Sequence record: PP596835.1
Direction: 5' to 3' (one strand)
DNA from: Escherichia phage Dru_SM1
Length of the DNA: 60,633 nt
Part shown: piece after piece, positions 18,197 through 60,624 of the stretch
Layout: each line of letters begins with the position of its first letter
How positions within the stretch are numbered: the first letter of the stretch is position 1
Position numbers and translations under genes: made by a program
The notes under the pieces: generated by a model
The model's database searches: none
What the model saw: the letters and a program-made list of their open reading frames with translations, nothing else
Told to the model about the DNA's origin: nothing

Positions 18197-18220
18197 CCCC
18201 GCTAATGCGGGGTAATTTTT
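18197..18220. terminator. bidirectional rho-independent terminator
   Basis: hairpin CCCCGC-TAAT-GCGGGG flanked by A-run upstream and TAATTTTT downstream; sits between convergent J-like gene and lipoprotein gene. Confidence 0.6.
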
Positions 18221-18452
18221 AGTAATCTATAACACAGTTGGAAGGACTACCAATTCGTCGGTAGTCGTGATCAATCTCATGACACCATTGCCCAGTCATT
18301 GGAAGTTTTTCGGTATCATAGATTAAAGAACCGTTACCGTCACGGTCTAAAGGTTTTGGAATAACACCGGAATTAGGCTTTCCTGTGTCCAGACCAGTAC
18401 CGCAAGCAGCTAACAGAAATGTTAATGCTAAAATTACAATAGAACTTTTCAT
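18219..18452 (-). CDS. small lipoprotein (candidate receptor-blocking superinfection-exclusion protein)
   Basis: 77 aa from ATG at 18452 with AAAGGAG RBS; signal peptide plus lipobox (LTFLLAAC-G); lone opposite-strand gene between tail fiber genes. Confidence 0.6.
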   Translation of the reverse strand: MKSSIVILALTFLLAACGTGLDTGKPNSGVIPKPLDRDGNGSLIYDTEKLPMTGQWCHEIDHDYRRIGSPSNCVIDY

Positions 18453-22270: not shown

Positions 22271-22295
22271 CAAATCCATATATGGAGATTTTCCT

Positions 22296-23003
22296 ATGTC
22301 TGACATGACTCTTTTACCTACTAATCTCGGTGGCGACGGTTTCGGTGGTGAAGCTGGTGCGGCTGGTATCGGTGGCGCGATCGGTGGTTTGATTGGTTCC
22401 TGGATCGGTAACGGTTGGGGCAGCAATGGTGGTTGGGGTGGTCGCGGTAACTTCGCTGGTCCGGTGGAAGTGCAAGCTTCTGTTGACACCAACGCAATTC
22501 TGCAAGCTATCAACAACGGTACTCTTCAGACCATTCAGGGGCAGAACGGTACTAACCTGACTGTTGAGCGCTCCGCTGCTTCTACCTATAACGGCATAAC
22601 TCAGCAGAACACTCAGAACATGCTGGCTTCCGTTCAGGGTTTTGCTGGTCTGAACACGCAGATCCAGAGCGGCACAAGCCAAGTGCTCGCGGCTCTGTGT
22701 AACAACGAAGCAGCTAATATTACCCGTTCCTTCCAGGCGCAGCTAGAAGCTCAGAAGTGTTGCTGCGAAACCAACCTGAACATCGAGCGTCAAGCAGAAG
22801 CTACTCGTGCGCTCCTGCGCGATCAGCACGCACAAGCGCAAGCTGTTCTGATCTGTGACCTGAAGTCCCAGTTGCAGGAAGCTCGCTTTGCAAACTCTCA
22901 GTTGGCACAAACGGCTGGTCTTACTTGTAAGATCAATCAGGTTGAGCAGTTAGTTAACTTTAAACTGCCAACTCCTCCAACTCCTCCGACTGGCTGCTGC
23001 TAA
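22296..23003 (+). CDS. glycine-rich, Cys-cluster protein of unknown function
   Basis: 235 aa from ATG 22296 (GGAGA RBS); N-terminal Gly/Trp-rich region (GGDGFGGEAGAAGIGGAIGGLIGSWIGNGWGSNGGWGGRGN), internal KCCCE and C-terminal PTPPTPPTGCC. Confidence 0.5.
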   Translation: MSDMTLLPTNLGGDGFGGEAGAAGIGGAIGGLIGSWIGNGWGSNGGWGGRGNFAGPVEVQASVDTNAILQAINNGTLQTIQGQNGTNLTVERSAASTYNGITQQNTQNMLASVQGFAGLNTQIQSGTSQVLAALCNNEAANITRSFQAQLEAQKCCCETNLNIERQAEATRALLRDQHAQAQAVLICDLKSQLQEARFANSQLAQTAGLTCKINQVEQLVNFKLPTPPTPPTGCC

Positions 23004-23073
23004 TCGTTGAAGTGTGGTTAAACTAAAGCGCCTTTCGCTCCTCCGCTTGGGCGCTTTTAACAGAGGTACTATC

Positions 23074-23442
23074 ATGAGCCACATTAAAATTGCAACGATG
23101 GGAATGCCACGGGTCAAATTGCCTAAGGTTGCTTTACCTCGCATTAGCGTAGGTGAGCACCACCATGAACATGAGAAAGAGGAATATAAACATGCTCAAT
23201 CTTATGCTCGAGATCATGAACATATGGCAGCTATGTCAAATGTTCTTGACCGGATGGAAGAACCTCCGCATACGTGGGCGGCGTACCACGACAAGCCCGG
23301 CGGTATGATGTCCATTGTTGAAATGGAATACCGCGAATTAATGGAGTGTAAGAAAGAAGGCGACCGCGCAGGGATCATGAAAGAGTTAACTGATCTTGCC
23401 GCAGCTTGTACTTGCGCTCTTCAAAAAATGAAAGATATGTAA
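23074..23442 (+). CDS. hypothetical protein (weak MazG-like resemblance)
   Basis: 122 aa from ATG 23074; His/Glu-rich; segment VEMEYRELMECKKEGDRAGIMKELTDLAA loosely resembles MazG-type pyrophosphohydrolase helices. Confidence 0.3.
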   Translation: MSHIKIATMGMPRVKLPKVALPRISVGEHHHEHEKEEYKHAQSYARDHEHMAAMSNVLDRMEEPPHTWAAYHDKPGGMMSIVEMEYRELMECKKEGDRAGIMKELTDLAAACTCALQKMKDM

Positions 23443-23457
23443 GAATAGGAAGCCGAC

Positions 23458-23988
23458 ATGCAAAACGTAAACGCAGGAATGGGCGTAACCCAGTTCAACG
23501 GGATGAAACCGAAAAACTCCATCAACATGGGCGGTGTTGATTGGACGTTACGTCGGGACGCTACCGATTCAACTACCATGTTCCCACACCAGAAGGTGAG
23601 CTGGCTTAATGCTGGATGTGAACCTATGGGTGATGGAAGGGTTCATTACTGTTGGATTATGGGAGTGATACCGCCTACGCCGGGCACTATCGAACGACCC
23701 GTGAATGTGATGTATGTCGGCTTCCACCAGTTCAAGATTACAATTGCTCCAAACTCCATTAGTCAATCAGATCTTGATCGTATGCATGTTTACGTCAGCG
23801 ATGGCACAGACTTCGCAGGGGATTTTATTAGTAAGTTTCTTGGTATGCAACCAGAGCAGCCTGTAGAAGCACGCGAGCATATTAGCCCGTGGCCACCCAT
23901 GATTGATCAGGAAGTGCTGCAACCAAAGACCGCTCAAACGGTCCCTCAGAAACCGGAGCAGAAGGTGAAACCAAATGACGAAGAATGA
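23458..23988 (+). CDS. hypothetical protein
   Basis: 176-aa ORF with AGGAAG RBS. Confidence 0.45.
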   Translation: MQNVNAGMGVTQFNGMKPKNSINMGGVDWTLRRDATDSTTMFPHQKVSWLNAGCEPMGDGRVHYCWIMGVIPPTPGTIERPVNVMYVGFHQFKITIAPNSISQSDLDRMHVYVSDGTDFAGDFISKFLGMQPEQPVEAREHISPWPPMIDQEVLQPKTAQTVPQKPEQKVKPNDEE

Positions 23989-24259
23989 AGGTATTGATAA
24001 AGTCGTTGAAGGGCTTTCTATTCGTGCTCATGTTATAGCAGACGAAGGTCATGATCAACTTACAATTATGAAATCTGCATTCAGCGATTTTAAGTCTCTT
24101 GGAAACTTAAGCGGGTTAATGACTGTGGTGTCGACCGGAAAATTAACCCAGCAGCAAATCAGTCTAGCTCAGCGTATTGCTGTTAAAGTTATTGCGGTAC
24201 TTGGGATGATTGAAGCTGAAAAGCCCAGTTCCAAGCAGGATAACGAAAGCGACCTTTAA
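23975..24259 (+). CDS. hypothetical protein
   Basis: 94-aa ORF overlapping upstream gene. Confidence 0.4.
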   Translation: MTKNEGIDKVVEGLSIRAHVIADEGHDQLTIMKSAFSDFKSLGNLSGLMTVVSTGKLTQQQISLAQRIAVKVIAVLGMIEAEKPSSKQDNESDL

Positions 24260-24270
24260 GGAGGTCTACT

Positions 24271-24474
24271 ATGTGTGGTAATACTAACCGTTGCTGTCTA
24301 GGCAGTCCTGCAACACAAGCAGGTATACTTCAGGGGCAATTGGCTCAAGCAGCGTGTAATTGCAAAACTTTTCAACCAGTAGCGCCAACTCCTGTGTTTG
24401 TGAATGCTTTTGCACCGCCTGTTTTCAATACTTTTGGCGTATACCCATACGGTGCTTTCTTTCGTATATTCTAA
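24271..24474 (+). CDS. small Cys-rich protein
   Basis: 67 aa with AAGGAGG RBS; 5 Cys in the first 31 residues (CGNTNRCC ... CNC); followed by a terminator. Confidence 0.4.
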   Translation: MCGNTNRCCLGSPATQAGILQGQLAQAACNCKTFQPVAPTPVFVNAFAPPVFNTFGVYPYGAFFRIF

Positions 24475-24484
24475 GAAGAGAAAA

Positions 24485-24507
24485 GGGGCAAACGCCCCCT
24501 TTCTTTA
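24485..24507. terminator. bidirectional terminator between convergent rightward and leftward gene blocks
   Basis: hairpin GGGGC-AAAC-GCCCC with A-run upstream and T-rich downstream. Confidence 0.5.
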
Positions 24508-24786
24508 ACGCTTATGAAAAGCTGACAGGATTGCAAGTGTTACAGCACCCAATCCGACGACGGTAGCATAAGTGAGTTGGCGTTGAACTTTAACAAAGCC
24601 ATAATAGGTGCTAGGGATGTCTACAATCCCAAACGCCATGGCAAAGCTGGTCGCAAGTAGTGCTACAGCAAGGGCGCGTAATAACGCCCTGCTCATTGCT
24701 GTAAAGCCCTTCTCATTACTATCTCCGGTCATTATAACAACAATGATTAGAAATAGCGAAACGACAACTAATAGATATTCCATCAT
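24505..24786 (-). CDS. small membrane protein
   Basis: 93-aa ORF with two long hydrophobic segments. Confidence 0.45.
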   Translation of the reverse strand: MMEYLLVVVSLFLIIVVIMTGDSNEKGFTAMSRALLRALAVALLATSFAMAFGIVDIPSTYYGFVKVQRQLTYATVVGLGAVTLAILSAFHKR

Positions 24787-24989
24787 TTGCGTCTCCTGTA
24801 CATGTATTGATCATACGCAGTCGCAATAATAGTGACTGGCCAGCAAGCGAGTATACATAGAAGACTTACAATCTTCTCCCAAAGTTTCTTATGGGCTAGC
24901 GCATAATCATAGTTATTCCAACAAAAGAAATAAGTCATTGTTGCAATAACTGCACCAATTACAAAATACATAACCACATATTCATGCAT
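24783..24989 (-). CDS. small membrane protein
   Basis: 68-aa ORF with two hydrophobic segments and basic C-terminus (YRRRK). Confidence 0.45.
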   Translation of the reverse strand: MHEYVVMYFVIGAVIATMTYFFCWNNYDYALAHKKLWEKIVSLLCILACWPVTIIATAYDQYMYRRRK

Positions 24990-25176
24990 CGGTAAACTCC
25001 CAAATCAGATTATAATTATTTCCCGCTGGTACATAGCGCCCTGGACGTGGATCGAAGCTTTTCACTGAAAACTCCAGCGTTCCAGCGCTATATAGTTGCA
25101 CCTTTTGTCCGTCCCACGGTCCGCCGATCAATTTAAAAGTCTGTCGATAACCTTTTGCAGCTTTAGCCATGCTCAC
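24982..25176 (-). CDS. hypothetical protein
   Basis: 64-aa ORF, start/stop overlap with neighbours. Confidence 0.4.
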   Translation of the reverse strand: MSMAKAAKGYRQTFKLIGGPWDGQKVQLYSAGTLEFSVKSFDPRPGRYVPAGNNYNLIWEFTDA

Positions 25177-25212
25177 TCCTTAAATACCCGCGCGAACGCG
25201 GGTATTATTTTA

Positions 25213-25428
25213 TTACGCTTCCGGTGTTTCCGGTGTTTCCGGTGATGGTTCATCAGGAACAACAATAACGTCGGCTAAAACTTTCAACGCTTCTTGTTGC
25301 TCCGCTGTCATATTATTCCAGTAATAGACGTGAATGTAAACTACTGGTTTGTCACCATGTTGCCACGGTTCGCGACTTACTACATCCACACCTAAATCGC
25401 TTGCTACGCTCTTTTCTTTACCGGCCAT
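25213..25428 (-). CDS. hypothetical protein
   Basis: 71-aa ORF with acidic PETPETPEA tail. Confidence 0.4.
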   Translation of the reverse strand: MAGKEKSVASDLGVDVVSREPWQHGDKPVVYIHVYYWNNMTAEQQEALKVLADVIVVPDEPSPETPETPEA

Positions 25429-25460
25429 GCTAATGTACCCCTTTAAAGTTTTACACGCTG

Positions 25461-25754
25461 CTAGCCCCCAAAAGTACCCCTATGATCAAGGGTTCTAATG
25501 CGCTGCTCCAGCCAACGTGCGTTCTTTTCAAAATGTTTATTGGTACGCGCTGCTTTGCACGCATCAATAATACCTAACTCACATCCAAGCTGCGTTTGTC
25601 CCATCACGTAAGAATTGGTTAACATGCTGGATACAAGCTCTTCACATTGTAACTTAATAGGATGGTCTTGGCATAGTTTCTTTGCTGCATCTTTTAAATC
25701 CACAGCTTGGACACCAGGCGCTATCAGCAAAGTTACGAGTAATAAACGTTTCAT
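25461..25754 (-). CDS. secreted protein with signal peptide
   Basis: 97-aa ORF; N-terminal signal peptide (MKRLLLVTLLIAPGVQA-VD) and 4 Cys. Confidence 0.45.
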   Translation of the reverse strand: MKRLLLVTLLIAPGVQAVDLKDAAKKLCQDHPIKLQCEELVSSMLTNSYVMGQTQLGCELGIIDACKAARTNKHFEKNARWLEQRIRTLDHRGTFGG

Positions 25755-26038
25755 TATGCTTTCCCTTTACGACATAAGGCTTGAAGTTCCAGAAGCGCAT
25801 CAATGTCTTCCTGTGGAGTTACACCAACGTGAATTGGATATTTATCGCGGCATTCGTTGCCGACTTCAACAGTGTGGTTAATGTAGCCGTAAACACATCC
25901 ACCAATAACAGTGAAGATAAGCGCAACAATCATTGTAAGGTACTTACCTTGTTTGCGTTCTTCATTTTGTTTATTAAGCTGACGGTTAAGTTCCACCGCG
26001 TCAATTTTACCTTTATTGTAATCGTCTACTAAGCTCAT
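25754..26038 (-). CDS. membrane protein
   Basis: likely start ATG 26038 (AGAGGAGA RBS); one transmembrane segment (LTMIVALIFTVIGGCVYGYI). Confidence 0.45.
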   Translation of the reverse strand: MSLVDDYNKGKIDAVELNRQLNKQNEERKQGKYLTMIVALIFTVIGGCVYGYINHTVEVGNECRDKYPIHVGVTPQEDIDALLELQALCRKGKA

Positions 26039-26102
26039 TTTGTATCTCCTCTTGTTGTATGCATATATTAAAACAGACCCGCGAAGGGTCTGCAAGTAGA
26101 AT

Positions 26103-28088
26103 TTAGGCGTATCCCATGTCTTCGAGATACTTCTCTGCTTTAGCTATATAAGAATCATAATCTATGTCGTCCGGTATTTTATCCGGTAGCGTCATGATCG
26201 GGACACCTCCCGCGCTACCAGCTACACGGTTGCCCGAGTTAGCATAGATTATTTCAGGTGTTTCTTCATTAGTGCTTAAGTACCAGCGTACAACCTTACC
26301 CAAAAATTCGCCATTCCATACCGCGCCGCCTTTTACCGCACGTAGGATAATGAATTTTCTAATATCGTTGCAATTGCGTATAGTACGAGAAACAGGCGTA
26401 CCGTGGGCCAAACATTCACATACAGCTTCCATAATGATCTCACCAGTACAGTTCTTTTGAAGACCTGTCTTGGCAAACCAGCCTTTACGCTTGATTTCAA
26501 CATTTCCTTCCTCGTCAGGTTCTTTTACTGCAACATAGTTATTGACGTTAGCACTGTACAGCTTGTCATAGTAGTTGGATTCCATTTCAAAACCTGTTAC
26601 GGATTCCCACCACTTAATCATGTTATCAACGAAATCCTGCATATGGTCTGGATACTTAACCACAATACCATCCGTGTTAGCTGAGATTACTTTAACACCA
26701 TTCAACTCAAATGCCTCAATAAGCATCAACAGTGAAAGCTGTCCGGTTAATGTAACTTGTATCAATAATTGCGGAGCGTACAGTACGGACCACATAGACC
26801 CCAGCTTACCAAACGATCCGTTGATAACGATCTTCAGCGTGTTGGCTGTGTTCTTGTCCCCTGAGTGCTTAGCTGCAATACGACGATCTACAATACTCTT
26901 ATAAACACGAAGGAACGCTGGTCCCAACTGTTCTGGATATAAGCCCTGATTAAGAATGATTGAAGGATAATAAGACGTTACGTCAATGTCCCGCTTTTTG
27001 ATACCAGGCTCTTTACCGTGACCAGCACACTCTTCGGAGCTATGCAAACCACCAATACCCATACGGTAGACACCGTCCGCAATCTTGATCTCAAGACCTG
27101 TTAATGCAGGAGGTAAGCTGATACCACCGTTATCGCTAACAATAAAGCGACAGTCCCGAACAATATCCAAAACACTATTCATCAAAGGAGTTTGAAAACG
27201 AATAAAGTCTGGTATGTTGTATGCATACTTTGTTCCAGGATAAACTTGCGGACGCTGTGGGCGCACTCCCGTCAACGCTTGGATTTCGTGCTTAATTACG
27301 TCTTCTGCAATCTGTGCATCTGAGCGTGAACGCAGGTCCACACCGTATTCTTGCGACATAATTTCACGCAAGTGAATAGGCTCTTGCAATGCAATAAAAC
27401 ATTCTTCCGTCTGTACAAGGTCGTTAATACAGTACCAGCGCACAATAAGCATCTGGTCTTGCGTCAACATTGTATTAGGCTTGAACGGTAAATCCTGCAT
27501 ACGACGAGTATGTACACGTCCGCCGTATTGTTTCAAACCGCCGGACCCAGGCAGCACTTCCATGATATCGATGTGGTTAACGTTCTGCATACGCTTGAGA
27601 CGGTAACTCTTTAATACATCCGAAGGACGCCAGTCTTCAACGATTATTTTATCAGTTGCGTCTTTAAGCTGAGCATTAGAGCAGCCGTTAAGCGCAAGCG
27701 TAGCAATGGGCATATCGTACCCGTTACCGTTAAAGCTTACGATAAGGAAGTTTGTCATTACCCAGTTAAGTAATAAGCAATTCAAACTACAACCGTGATA
27801 CATCTCGAAGTAGACAACTTTCTTAGTTCGCACTCCGCGAAATGCAATTAAGAAATAATTTGGATAACATTCTATATCATATACAAGCGGTTCGCGGTTA
27901 ATCCATGCTTGAATAAGTTCGTCCTGTGTGTACAGGTTGTATTGGAAGTTCCGCGCTTCCTCAAGATTAGGCAAATAATCCGGGCGCTCCCAAGTGCGTT
28001 CCGGCGGTAAACGTTTAACCTTTTCTTTCTTTGCTTTTGGCTCAGGCGGTAAGTCCTGCCAAAAGAAACCAATAGCATCTGTCCGCAT
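26103..28088 (-). CDS. DNA polymerase, family B
   Basis: Exo I motif YDIECY, motif A DVTSYYPSII, motif B KIVINGSFGKLG, NTDG near C-terminus; start set to ATG 28088, which overlaps the upstream stop (TAATG). Confidence 0.8.
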   Translation of the reverse strand: MRTDAIGFFWQDLPPEPKAKKEKVKRLPPERTWERPDYLPNLEEARNFQYNLYTQDELIQAWINREPLVYDIECYPNYFLIAFRGVRTKKVVYFEMYHGCSLNCLLLNWVMTNFLIVSFNGNGYDMPIATLALNGCSNAQLKDATDKIIVEDWRPSDVLKSYRLKRMQNVNHIDIMEVLPGSGGLKQYGGRVHTRRMQDLPFKPNTMLTQDQMLIVRWYCINDLVQTEECFIALQEPIHLREIMSQEYGVDLRSRSDAQIAEDVIKHEIQALTGVRPQRPQVYPGTKYAYNIPDFIRFQTPLMNSVLDIVRDCRFIVSDNGGISLPPALTGLEIKIADGVYRMGIGGLHSSEECAGHGKEPGIKKRDIDVTSYYPSIILNQGLYPEQLGPAFLRVYKSIVDRRIAAKHSGDKNTANTLKIVINGSFGKLGSMWSVLYAPQLLIQVTLTGQLSLLMLIEAFELNGVKVISANTDGIVVKYPDHMQDFVDNMIKWWESVTGFEMESNYYDKLYSANVNNYVAVKEPDEEGNVEIKRKGWFAKTGLQKNCTGEIIMEAVCECLAHGTPVSRTIRNCNDIRKFIILRAVKGGAVWNGEFLGKVVRWYLSTNEETPEIIYANSGNRVAGSAGGVPIMTLPDKIPDDIDYDSYIAKAEKYLEDMGYA

Positions 28089-29041
28089 TAAACACGTTCT
28101 CCAATTAAAACACCGCGAAGATTTTCCCCAAAGAATGCGCAAGGTTGCGGATACAAACTAAAGTCCGCAGTCTTAACCACATTTTCAAGCAATAGCAGGA
28201 TATCAATATTGTACACTCCCGTTATTGTGCGGTCTTGTAATACGAAGCTCGCACCTTCTGCATCATCGTAATGAGTACGCGCTAGACCGTTTTCAATATA
28301 TACGCGAGGACGATCTTCTGCAAAAGGTTTAATTTTATGCAAACCCTCAAAAAGACCGGGATCAACAGGATGTGCATTGCATTGAACATTTAAAATACGA
28401 CGTATATCCGGCCACTCCGCATCAATAAGCTGTGTTCGCAACCAGCGACCTTCTGGATAATGAAATGTTACATTGTTCTTGCTAACCTGAATATGTGTCG
28501 GGTTAGCTTTAATGCGCAGTATTTCTTTAATAGCAACAGACGGTATTATGCAGTCAATAGGGAATTGATTACCAAACCAATATTCCGCAATGGTGACGTT
28601 ATTTGTAGCAAACAGGCTACCGTTATTAATCAGAATACCGCAAGCCCACGGGCGGGATGCATCTGAGCCTACAAACGGAGCAACGGACTTCACACCATGA
28701 ACGAGGCGAGCCCCATCTATTTCGTATAAATCACCTTCAGGGAATACGTGAGGCGTTTCCTTGTCAATGCAGCGTATAGCAACACGAAACGGTCCGGACT
28801 TAATATTAAGTTTACCGTTAGCCATCATTGTTAACTGTACGGTTTCGTCACAGTTTGAAATAGCTTTAATCATAGGCCCAGCTTCGGGCTTGCAATCAAT
28901 ATCCAGCTCAATAGGGCTACCCAGTGCAATAACACCGTTAAAGCCCTGTACCTGTCCATCACGGATAAGAAAGCTGGTAAGCCCTTCTACCAGTTCCTTT
29001 TTAGCGACGGACCCTTGAACAAATTTAAGAGCGTCTAACAT
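28088..29041 (-). CDS. hypothetical protein (possible polymerase accessory / sliding clamp; unverified)
   Basis: 317-aa ORF translationally coupled to the DNA polymerase gene; function guessed from position only. Confidence 0.3.
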   Translation of the reverse strand: MLDALKFVQGSVAKKELVEGLTSFLIRDGQVQGFNGVIALGSPIELDIDCKPEAGPMIKAISNCDETVQLTMMANGKLNIKSGPFRVAIRCIDKETPHVFPEGDLYEIDGARLVHGVKSVAPFVGSDASRPWACGILINNGSLFATNNVTIAEYWFGNQFPIDCIIPSVAIKEILRIKANPTHIQVSKNNVTFHYPEGRWLRTQLIDAEWPDIRRILNVQCNAHPVDPGLFEGLHKIKPFAEDRPRVYIENGLARTHYDDAEGASFVLQDRTITGVYNIDILLLLENVVKTADFSLYPQPCAFFGENLRGVLIGERV

Positions 29042-31889: not shown

Positions 31890-32369
31890 TTACGCTCTCG
31901 CTGTACGTGAATGAACTTCGTAAACAACCCAAAGGATAGCGGACGCTGTGAATTTACTTAAGCTCATTGCTACCATAGATCCCGGATTAACAATACCTAT
32001 AATACTTAAGAACACAATGGAGTCAATTGGTACAGCTACCAAAGAGCTGATAAATACTCGTTGATGGAAAGGCTTCTTGGTGACCGTGTATACTACATAA
32101 TCCGCAAACTCACTAAGCGCAAAAGACGCAACGGATGCAACTACAACCGCAGGATCTCCGAACACCCAGCTAAGAATGCAACCAACAATCATTGCAGGGA
32201 TAACACCTTTGCCAGCGTTACGCTGTGCGTAATCACGAAGAACAAAGATAATACCTACAAAGAAAGCCATCATAGGGACTACGCCAAGTGGCGTATTAAG
32301 CATCGGAAGGTAGGAAAAGCCCAGGTTTACGAATGTAATTGCAGCCAGATAAGCAACGATAAATTTCAT
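31890..32369 (-). CDS. multi-pass membrane protein (possible queuosine-precursor transporter)
   Basis: 159-aa ORF with ~5 hydrophobic segments inside the que cluster; transporter role inferred from context only. Confidence 0.35.
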   Translation of the reverse strand: MKFIVAYLAAITFVNLGFSYLPMLNTPLGVVPMMAFFVGIIFVLRDYAQRNAGKGVIPAMIVGCILSWVFGDPAVVVASVASFALSEFADYVVYTVTKKPFHQRVFISSLVAVPIDSIVFLSIIGIVNPGSMVAMSLSKFTASAILWVVYEVHSRTARA

Positions 32370-59188: not shown

Positions 59189-59626
59189 ATGGCACTTCAA
59201 CCTCGTGGTATTCGTAATAACAATCCAGGCAATATTCGCTGGGGTGATAATTGGCAGGGCTTAGTTCCTGCTGATAAGCGAACCGATAAATCTTTTGCGC
59301 AATTCACGCAACCGATTTACGGCATTCGTGCACTAGCGAAAATCCTGACAAACTACACCAAACGTGAAGGCTTGCCCAATGTGGGTAAGAAAAACATCGA
59401 CACTGTACGTGAAATTATCGCTCGCTGGGCACCGCCTAACGAAAACGATACGGAAGCGTATATTCGCTCTGTTGCCAAAGCAATTGGTGTTCAACCTAAC
59501 GATCCAATTAATGTCTTCGACAAGGCAATTATGTCAGGATTGGTGAAAGCAATCATTCGTCATGAAAATGGCATGATGCCCTATACCGATGACGTAATTA
59601 ACCGCGCTATTGCAATGGTACTTTAA
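59189..59626 (+). CDS. putative endolysin (family not determined)
   Basis: ORF 58916-59626; likely start ATG 59189 (GGAGGAGG RBS); sits immediately upstream of holin and Rz/Rz1; no catalytic family assigned. Confidence 0.45.
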   Translation: MALQPRGIRNNNPGNIRWGDNWQGLVPADKRTDKSFAQFTQPIYGIRALAKILTNYTKREGLPNVGKKNIDTVREIIARWAPPNENDTEAYIRSVAKAIGVQPNDPINVFDKAIMSGLVKAIIRHENGMMPYTDDVINRAIAMVL

Positions 59627-59662
59627 CTGACGGGGCGTTAGCCCCTTTTATTTGGAGGGAAC

Positions 59663-60007
59663 ATGTTCAATTCACCCAACGAACATTGGGCAGTTCTAGC
59701 GGGGTTTGCGTTTATCTCCCTCATTGGGGGAGCTCTCGGTTATGTCATGCGTACAATAGACGCTGGTAAGAAAGTACGGGCAAGTATTGCGTTTCTTGAA
59801 GGCTTATCCGCCGCTTTCTTTGGCGTTATAATGTATGCGATCTACAGGGAGTTTAACATCAGCCTTTGGTTCGCTTTTGGCCTTGCTGGCCTATTTGCTT
59901 GGGCAGGTTCACGTGCTACGCTAAAAGCCCTAACGTCGCTTATAGCTTCACGGACAGGGATCAAACTCGATTCAGGGGACTGCAAACATGAAAACGATTC
60001 TAAATAA
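59663..60007 (+). CDS. putative holin
   Basis: 114-aa ORF with ~3 transmembrane segments and charged C-terminus, between endolysin and spanin genes. Confidence 0.5.
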   Translation: MFNSPNEHWAVLAGFAFISLIGGALGYVMRTIDAGKKVRASIAFLEGLSAAFFGVIMYAIYREFNISLWFAFGLAGLFAWAGSRATLKALTSLIASRTGIKLDSGDCKHENDSK

Positions 60008-60461
60008 CTTCTTCGGTTTTATAAAAACTAAACCGCGTCTGTTTATCGAGTATTTGATGATCGGCGCGGTTGTGTTTTTATGCGGGGTGGCTGCATACTT
60101 GTGGTCACAGAACGAGCTCAGCAAAACTAATTTAAATCATGCTGAGCAAAGACTAACCGTTGTAGAACGGGACAATGCAAAGCTGGGCGAAGCTGTTGTA
60201 TTTCTTGCATCCCAACGGGAGAAGGATACTGAATCCTATCGAAAATTGGCTTCAGCAATTGAAAGTGAGCAACATAACCACAGGTTGCTTCAGGACAAAT
60301 TAAAAGCACTGGAGAAAAGCAATGCCGACGTCAAAGCTTATCTTAATGAGCGTGTTCCTGATGATTTGCGCAGGCTGCTCGACGGAGATACAACCTCCAC
60401 CGCCGCAGATAGTGAAGATAAAACTTCCAGCTCATCTGTTGGTAGAATGTCGGGAAGTTGA
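59988..60461 (+). CDS. Rz: i-spanin (Rz-like)
   Basis: 157-aa ORF; N-terminal transmembrane anchor then charged coiled-coil-like region; Rz1-like gene embedded in +1 frame. Confidence 0.55.
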   Translation: MKTILNNFFGFIKTKPRLFIEYLMIGAVVFLCGVAAYLWSQNELSKTNLNHAEQRLTVVERDNAKLGEAVVFLASQREKDTESYRKLASAIESEQHNHRLLQDKLKALEKSNADVKAYLNERVPDDLRRLLDGDTTSTAADSEDKTSSSSVGRMSGS

Positions 60462-60624
60462 TAAATATCCTTTGGTTTATACGAGGGATATTATCCAACG
60501 TTTGCAGGATACAGAAACAGCTCTGACTGAATGTAAACTGAGGGTTAAGGAAATCATACGCTATGAAGCTGAAAATGTTTCGCTTGATTTTGTAGGATCA
60601 AGCAATTATATTCAGCCTAAATAG
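60322..60624 (+). CDS. Rz1: o-spanin (Rz1-like lipoprotein)
   Basis: 100-aa ORF inside the Rz gene in another frame; signal peptide with lipobox-like LMICAGC and proline run (QPPPPQ). Confidence 0.55.
   Translation: MPTSKLILMSVFLMICAGCSTEIQPPPPQIVKIKLPAHLLVECREVDKYPLVYTRDIIQRLQDTETALTECKLRVKEIIRYEAENVSLDFVGSSNYIQPK

Follow-up and report, generated by a model that had tools for sequence, protein, structure and literature searches.

A mosaic accessory island of small proteins behind the DNA polymerase gene of the Seuratvirus coliphage Dru_SM1 and its possible part in superinfection exclusion

The closest described counterparts of the locus analyzed here are small exclusion proteins that phages place in the cell envelope. 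T4 Spackle, which is made early, is a helical protein of the periplasm with 75 amino acids (aa) and a disulfide bond and acts in exclusion (PMC7677548), and gene 15 of HK97, the first described moron, encodes an inner membrane exclusion protein and is flanked by the genes for the tail chaperone and the tape measure (PMC3594210). T4 Imm and P22 SieA are small, polytopic, nonessential inner membrane proteins that are made by the resident phage and block DNA injection, whereas Cor and T5 Llp are small exported siphophage proteins that prevent reinfection as outer membrane lipoproteins. Here, we analyzed the sequence of Escherichia phage Dru_SM1 (PP596835.1; 60,633 nucleotides, referred to as the window), a 60.6-kb Seuratvirus (Queuovirinae) coliphage genome that looks complete, and in it a locus of six consecutive minus-strand open reading frames (ORFs), g6 to g1, between the stop of the DNA polymerase gene polB (26103) and a bidirectional terminator (24481 to 24503). 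Our overall explanation, to which we assign a probability of roughly 0.4, is that the locus is a mosaic accessory island of three units, in which envelope proteins would exclude a second phage at the entry step and g3 would counteract the bacteriophage exclusion (BREX) defense. By analogy, such a locus would work most like T4 Imm/Sp or HK97 gp15; it belongs to none of these groups, and every homology test failed.

The structural genes of the window run rightward up to ~24.5 kb, the replication and deazaguanine genes form a leftward block from ~50.7 kb down to 24.5 kb, and a second rightward block terminates in the lysis genes. An earlier note on this DNA had described six consecutive small ORFs past the polymerase gene, at the distal end of the leftward block, and their coordinates, the Shine-Dalgarno site before every one of them, and their ratios of nonsynonymous to synonymous substitution rates (dN/dS) bear this out. 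The size range given there was 64 to 97 aa; g3 counts 62 aa from the ATG behind its AAGGAG site, and the figure of 64 aa belongs to a GTG start. Transmembrane (TM) segments and topologies were assigned by Kyte-Doolittle scans and charge distribution, that is, from the sequence alone. They place g6, g5, g2, and g1 in the envelope and leave g3 and g4 soluble, so that the description of six membrane or secreted proteins holds for four of the six, and the envelope functions suggested with it (exclusion, lysis inhibition, remodeling) are plausible for these four but not for the cytoplasmic g3 and g4. Likewise, the three proteins said to have one or two TM segments are g6 with one, g2 with two, and g1 with three, whereas the cleavable signal peptide with four cysteines was correctly assigned to g5.

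Starts and stops overlap at g6/g5 (TAATG), g3/g2, and g2/g1, which points to translational coupling, and a terminator scan combined with folding found three hairpins in the locus, after polB, after g4, and after g1. The six genes are arranged in three translationally coupled units, g6-g5, g4, and g3-g2-g1. Wherever substitutions suffice, in comparisons with Seurat, CAjan, four BASEL phages, phiG7, STP-SP5, and yong3, dN/dS values for g1 to g6 are 0.04 to 0.3, and because of this purifying selection they are taken as real genes. In more than 30 Seuratvirus records they are annotated as hypothetical proteins, and the Seuratvirus comparative-genomics paper is silent on them. None of the six proteins is related to a curated family: scans against Pfam (E ≤ 1), NCBIfam, and PADLOC gave zero matches, and the PHROGs scan returned six families, all of unknown function; Rfam and tRNA scans of the locus found nothing. 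Having four exported proteins among six neighbors is not a significant enrichment (permutation p ~0.14, with a crude gene list); the locus is marked instead by conservation, translational coupling, and synteny. Ksap1, a small KpAvs2-activating protein, was considered as a candidate and set aside, as it belongs to Dhillonvirus and not to Seuratvirus.

The locus is a variable island of nonessential accessory genes and closes the leftward replication operon at its 3' end. Between 24000 and 28200 the window is 96 to 98% identical to SLUR75, Greed, Seurat, CAjan, and the BASEL Seuratviruses, and relatives differ in what they carry at the site. Nonagvirus JenP2 has zero genes there, its polB converging directly on the tail-fiber block; Providencia phage PSTCR4 has one 51-aa ORF; in Pantoea phage Vid5 and in Vid5-like contigs, the site encodes a secreted protein with four cysteines that resembles g5 and a 72-aa two-TM protein. 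In Salmonella phage STP-SP5, g2 is missing and an additional gene follows polB, and Hafnia phage yong3 is without g4 and has a longer, 98-aa version of g2. In a metagenomic Seuratvirus contig from ENA (L041, 1964 to 2523), polB is 98% identical to that of the window, and the cassette consists of a g5-like gene (26% identical) and a g3-like gene only, followed directly by the convergent block. VogelGryff (Bas25; L014, 1552 to 1773) has undergone a natural deletion of ~2 kb relative to window positions ~22850 to 24890, from the 3' end of a Gly-rich gene to the middle of g2, by which it lost g1, the greater part of g2, and four convergent-module genes. Because the relatives carry different subsets, the six genes do not constitute one obligate system. 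Cysteine and motif positions are invariant at 25 to 50% identity, and synteny is kept across genera.

One of the four envelope proteins of the island is g5 (25461 to 25754, minus strand; 97 aa; DruSM1 ORF34, Seurat gp28), a predicted Sec-secreted protein. Its signal peptide, read from the sequence, has a typical n-h-c build (MKR, then LLLVTLLIAPGV with a hydrophobic core of 12 residues, then VQA, with cleavage before VD), and the ~80 mature residues form four helices with invariant C28, C37, C58, and C66. An AlphaFold2 (AF2) model has a predicted local distance difference test score (pLDDT) of 77.6 overall and of 86 to 91 in the core; there are no fold relatives in PDB or BFVD. Word-indexed searches of 5.8 billion proteins with g5 and g1 as queries retrieved Seuratvirus-like sequences only, and a g5 profile searched exhaustively against 1.84 billion representatives yielded only 15 clusters. 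Except for P0026, a repetitive 382-aa protein that looks like a spurious match, the distant relatives have 88 to 109 aa, a signal peptide, and the same four cysteines; both features are invariant in all 17 aligned family members. When the signal peptide was removed and the mature part was aligned with the distant group, the hhalign probability was 97.7%. We disregarded a weak match of g5 (E = 0.0015) that falls on the signal peptide; it is to phrog_1256, annotated as "valyl-tRNA synthetase modifier." g5 founds a previously undescribed family of putatively secreted, helical proteins with four cysteines.

In prophages of Proteus mirabilis and Providencia, a distant g5 relative lies immediately 5' of the tape-measure gene (TMP_3), with a terminator hairpin behind it; the one in Proteus has as neighbors genes for a lipoprotein and for another secreted protein. 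Promoter matches of these prophage genes were not above chance, and tblastn with the prophage relatives against isolated phages gave zero matches. In a Salmonella contig (L044), a g5 relative closes a small-gene operon converging on tail-fiber genes, with a gene for a two-TM protein behind it, and in contig L038 a distant relative comes after a coiled-coil protein that has a TM segment at its C terminus. The chromosome of Budvicia aquatica (L031 to L033, 4492 to 6709) carries two tandem g5-family paralogues outside any obvious prophage; they adjoin a gene for a secreted 258-aa protein with a subthreshold match to VasI of the type VI secretion system (T6SS).

Two of the described exclusion proteins can be compared directly with g5. 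Like g5, T4 Spackle comes from a virulent phage, is encoded outside the lysis genes, has a cleavable signal peptide, and is dispensable in single infection; both mature forms have ~75 to 80 residues, and that of Spackle is compact, all-helical, and disulfide bonded, for which the four cysteines and the AF2 model of g5 offer a counterpart (PMC7677548). However, there is no sequence or fold homology between the two. The target of a Spackle-type protein would be a tail-borne lysozyme of the excluded phage; in the window phage, the tape-measure protein and the distal tail proteins were scanned for muralytic Pfam domains, and none was found. HK97 gp15, a small protein of the envelope, stops genome entry and leaves the receptor unmasked, and its slot is the one occupied by the prophage relatives of g5 (PMC3594210). 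It differs in that it is membrane inserted and belongs to the YebO family, whereas g5 is predicted to be soluble and secreted and has no homology to it (no Pfam match at E ≤ 1); moreover, gene 15 lies near the tail genes, whereas g5 of the window stands behind polB in a virulent phage and outside the tail operon. With Cor and Llp, a g6-g5 pair would have in common the prevention of reinfection, but those proteins carry a lipobox, and none of g1 to g6 does (the cleavage site of g5, VQA/V, has no Cys).

The upstream partner of g5 is g6 (25754 to 26038, minus strand; 94 aa; DruSM1 ORF35, Seurat gp29). One hydrophobic segment (residues 35 to 53) makes it a predicted single-pass inner membrane protein with N-in/C-out orientation. 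In the family alignment, the cytoplasmic N terminus is conserved and nearly invariant (DDYNKGKI..ELNR), the TM segment is variable, and the periplasmic tail of ~40 aa contains invariant C62..KY and C89-R/K-x-G; dN/dS is 0.04 to 0.27. A single-sequence AF2 model (pLDDT 80.6) consists of two helices, 3 to 66 and 75 to 90. An overlapping g6-like/g5-like pair persists in the very divergent contig L035, in which the g5 relative is 26% identical, and also in L034, and this retained overlap argues for a functional pair.

Deletion data are available in Supplementary Table S1 of a preprint describing a PhiDruSM1 knockout library (10.1101/2024.04.14.589459). All of the deletion half-primers (18/18, 20 to 35 nucleotides) match the window exactly, which makes it PhiDruSM1 or a phage nearly identical to it, and ORF30 to ORF35 of the library are g1 to g6. 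Each of the six was deleted singly and is listed with "deletion mutant synthesized: Yes"; in the changed-defense column, ORF32 (g3) is the only one among them with an entry, "Brex type1" (10.1101/2024.04.14.589459). The island genes are real, conserved, and individually deletable, and four are exported by prediction. g1, g2, g5, and g6 are dispensable for plaque formation and neutral to the cytoplasmic defense systems in the library, which is the profile expected of functions that operate only on superinfection or in lysis timing. ORF36 (DNA polymerase) and ORF37 (processivity factor), at 26103 to 29041 on the minus strand, also carry "synthesized: Yes" in the same table, which is unexpected for replication genes.

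Tentatively, and by analogy with the described systems, we propose that g6-g5, possibly along with g2 and g1, exclude superinfecting phages when these deliver their DNA, a role that we consider possible while granting it distinctly less than even odds. Exclusion is favored for g6-g5 because the pair is co-oriented with the replication genes and far from a complete lysis cassette, because its deletions are viable and defense-neutral, as expected if the phenotype is seen on superinfection only, and because distant g5 relatives occupy the HK97 gp15 slot before the tape-measure gene. In such a mechanism, g6-g5, and possibly g2 and g1, would be made together with the replication genes and would reside in the periplasm and inner membrane of the infected cell, where they would block DNA delivery by a second phage; g5 might bind an incoming tail-tip or tape-measure component, or a host factor needed for entry, and g6 might anchor or regulate g5 at the membrane, while g3 would counter BREX from the cytoplasm. 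The most far-reaching version, in which a doubly disulfide-stapled g5 family would be used by phages of Enterobacterales to block tape-measure-mediated genome delivery in the periplasm and the island would carry a new small anti-BREX protein in g3 as well, is unlikely as a whole. In this version, virulent siphophages would carry the gene behind polB, often coupled to the anchor g6, temperate ones would carry it as a moron before the tape-measure gene, and the proteins would represent a new class among those that act in superinfection exclusion.

The cytoplasmic arm of the proposal concerns g3 (24982 to 25170, minus strand; DruSM1 ORF32, Seurat gp26), a basic soluble protein (isoelectric point [pI] 9.5) with the invariant motif (L/V)(I/V)GGP(W/F)DG and with homologues in yong3 and L041. 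Its alleles diverge sharply, most of all at the C terminus, among phages that are ~95% identical elsewhere; dS is saturated, dN/dS is 0.03 to 0.17, and the pattern implies allele exchange at the locus. This divergence is arms-race-like. The ORF32 primers map exactly to a deletion of 25013 to 25167, and the deletion was checked by PCR (10.1101/2024.04.14.589459). The BREX resistance of the Seuratvirus-type phage group is currently unexplained (10.64898/2026.05.19.726188). On the basis of the one supplementary-table entry and of allelic diversification, g3 is a candidate anti-BREX factor, although we would not yet bet on it at even odds. It shares with T7 Ocr, an acidic DNA mimic, and with the T3 S-adenosylmethionine lyase the property of being a small phage protein with a listed effect on BREX type I; unlike them, g3 is basic, is with 62 aa not enzyme sized, and belongs to no known family.

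Several observations weigh against the combined proposal. The absence of g6 from Vid5-like phages and from L041 indicates that g5-type proteins can work without it; the relationship of g5 to the prophage morons is remote (21 to 31% identity), and the shared insertion slot is an analogy; and since exported proteins are not significantly clustered, the functions of the units may be unrelated. A convincing sigma-70 promoter for g6 to g1 was not found, a terminator-like hairpin parts polB from g6, and the timing of expression is a presumption drawn from gene order. The ORF32-BREX entry stands in the supplementary table only, with neither a complementation clone nor a discussion in the main text (10.1101/2024.04.14.589459). 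Should none of the proposal hold, the locus would be an ordinary island of dispensable ORFan genes, and ORFan envelope genes are common in phages. If exclusion by g6-g5 is true, it adds a protein family to the very few exclusion mechanisms that are understood molecularly, could explain interference between cocktail components, and offers a handle on how the tape measure crosses the periplasm. Independently of this, g3 would count as a new anti-BREX candidate of very small size. Seuratviruses are common coliphages, members of the BASEL reference set, and phage-therapy candidates, and the existing ORF30 to ORF35 deletion phages of DruSM1 make the exclusion proposal directly testable; with these mutants at hand and with the link of g5 to the prophage moron slot, the locus is a cheap and well-defined target.

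The remaining envelope proteins, g2 and g1, close the operon. g2 (24783 to 24989, minus strand; 68 aa; DruSM1 ORF31, Seurat gp25) has two TM segments, a WP motif in the second of them, and a C-terminal YRRRK, with dN/dS values of 0.13 to 0.6. Similar small two-TM proteins follow the g5-like genes of Vid5 and of the Salmonella contig L044; homology of g2 to these proteins, that of Vid5 included, was not demonstrable. g1 (24505 to 24786, minus strand; 93 aa; DruSM1 ORF30, Seurat gp24) has three hydrophobic segments, a predicted N-out/C-in topology, an HKR tail, and a loop that is highly conserved in the family alignment (YYGFVK.Q(H/R)QLTYA); dN/dS is 0.06 to 0.09 at informative divergence. In size and topology both are comparable to T4 Imm and P22 SieA, yet none of the six proteins matches Imm_superinfect or another family. 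Moreover, the g1 family has its own loop motif and is restricted to virulent siphophages (Seuratvirus, 9NA/Sashavirus-like, Eiauvirus), and no homologue was found in bacteria (one genome from each of 185,579 species). A g1 homologue is always the last gene of a small-gene operon and is usually preceded by another small, exported, cysteine-containing protein.

A five-gene module (22290 to 24474, plus strand) converges on g1. Its members are a Gly-zipper/Cys-rich protein of 237 aa, a His-rich protein of 121 aa with a weak PRA-PH/MazG-like match, proteins of 176 and 94 aa, and a Cys-rich protein of 67 aa with FFRIF at its end. The gene for the 176-aa protein is present in 140 records of phages (Seuratvirus, Nonagvirus, 9NA/Sashavirus, Eiauvirus, Drexlerviridae, and Yersinia phages), and the last three genes are DruSM1 ORF27 to ORF29, listed as deletable. 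A functional link between g1 and this module (A to E), suggested by their adjacency in three phage groups, was dropped, since some 9NA-like contigs carry g1 without the module and Nonagvirus carries the module without g1.

The architecture of these proteins also invites an explanation by lysis timing, in which g6 and g5, like T4 RI, would detect a signal in the periplasm or pass it on, and g1 and g2, as holin- or antiholin-like proteins, would modulate the Phage_holin_3_3 holin. g6 with its anchored periplasmic part and g5 as its partner resemble the membrane-anchored and periplasmic pair of T4 lysis inhibition (RI/RIII); g1 (three TM segments, basic C terminus) and g2 (two TM segments, RRRK) match class I and II holins in size and topology; the viable single deletions without a defense phenotype, g3 excepted, fit as well, and the coiled-coil/TM protein that precedes the distant g5 relative in L038 points the same way. 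The lysis cassette, however, is located at 59189 to 60624, separate from the island as the earlier note had it, and lacks no canonical component: it contains a transglycosylase-like endolysin, the holin, and an i-spanin and o-spanin lipoprotein pair (59988 to 60624). g1 to g6 lie 33 kb away in the opposite transcription block, beside the replication genes, and none of the six proteins matches a holin or antiholin family of Pfam or PHROGs, so that g2 and g1 are holin-like in build only. g6 and g5 are not Rz/Rz1 spanins either, given a periplasmic tail of only ~40 aa in g6 and the lack of a lipoprotein signal in g5. In addition, the prophage relatives of g5 are terminator-flanked morons beside tail genes, an arrangement that suits expression in the lysogen rather than at lysis, and VogelGryff, without g1 and most of g2, is an ordinary plaque-forming BASEL phage (PMC8594841). 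Because of the wrong neighborhood and of morons expressed in lysogens, lysis inhibition is less supported than exclusion, and we rate a role in lysis timing as improbable.

Counter-defense or immunity could be the purpose of the island instead of exclusion: g5 would be a periplasmic inhibitor resembling T6SS or bacteriocin immunity proteins, or would block a membrane-bound abortive-infection or injection-sensing defense, and g4 and g3 would be cytoplasmic antidefense proteins. The BREX type I flag on the g3 deletion speaks for this, as do the hypervariability of the locus, which is that of counter-defense islands, and the weak VasI match beside the Budvicia paralogues. The same holds for g4 (25213 to 25428, minus strand; 71 aa; DruSM1 ORF33, Seurat gp27), which is small, soluble, and acidic (pI 4.4) like many antidefense proteins; it has a conserved EPW.HGDKPV.Y.H.YYW motif, a PETPE tail, and dN/dS values of 0.04 to 0.2, and it is present in STP-SP5 and L034 and absent from yong3 and L041. 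Compared with the periplasmic T6SS immunity proteins (Tai4/Rap-like), however, g5 shows neither fold or sequence similarity nor linkage to an effector, and we give this explanation of the island little credence.

Host takeover, finally, would assign no antiphage role to the island; its small envelope proteins would inhibit or rewire division, transport, envelope-stress signaling, or peptidoglycan turnover. Many early small phage proteins are of the host-takeover kind, the island runs in the same orientation as early or middle genes, and the conserved ends and variable TM segment of g6 are what is expected of a linker between partners on both sides of the membrane. Nevertheless, under laboratory conditions the phage can do without any single one of the six genes, the whole island is missing from Nonagvirus relatives that share the replication module and the hosts, and the presence of g5 relatives in prophages fits badly with a growth-inhibitory factor, which would be costly in a lysogen; takeover is accordingly a rather improbable account. 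That the ORFs are short, match no curated family, and are each deletable might suggest chance reading frames or decaying remnants, but purifying selection in all six, the kept ribosome-binding sites and coupling, the invariant cysteines and motifs at low identity, and the synteny across genera leave this with a negligible probability.

Three hairpins delimit the units. The one between polB and g6 (26067 to 26096, minus strand; -13.6 kcal/mol) has the arms GCAGACCC and GGGTCTGT around a TTCGC loop and is followed by TTTTAAT; the hairpin itself is terminator-like, whereas its flanks (TTGCAG-N17-TTTAAT) are promoter-like, and no second copy of the promoter-like motif upstream of g6 occurs elsewhere in the window. 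Hairpin and flanks are kept directly 5' of g6 in STP-SP5, yong3, L018, and L041, and in STP-SP5 the element still adjoins g6 despite the extra gene inserted after polB. It may be a terminator or attenuator combined with a promoter. The GC-rich, 10-bp hairpin between g4 and g3 (25183 to 25206, minus strand; -15.8 kcal/mol) is kept in STP-SP5 and splits g6-g5-g4 from g3-g2-g1; with only three T residues behind it on the minus strand, it would act as a weak terminator or attenuator. The terminator that parts g1 from the convergent rightward block (24481 to 24503; -18.4 kcal/mol) is intrinsic and bidirectional, and the record of phage Seurat annotates a terminator on both strands.

Two further putative envelope proteins are encoded elsewhere in the window. 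Antisense and immediately after gpJ, a 77-aa lipoprotein gene (18219 to 18452, minus strand) has the lipobox LAAC, belongs to phrog_12984, and is the deletable ORF21 of DruSM1. In the BASEL study, the cognate exclusion proteins of small siphoviruses are placed after gpJ (PMC8594841), and the lipoprotein is likely a receptor-masking exclusion protein of the Cor/Llp type. Inside the deazaguanine cluster, a 159-aa protein with five hydrophobic segments (31890 to 32369, minus strand) may be a precursor transporter.

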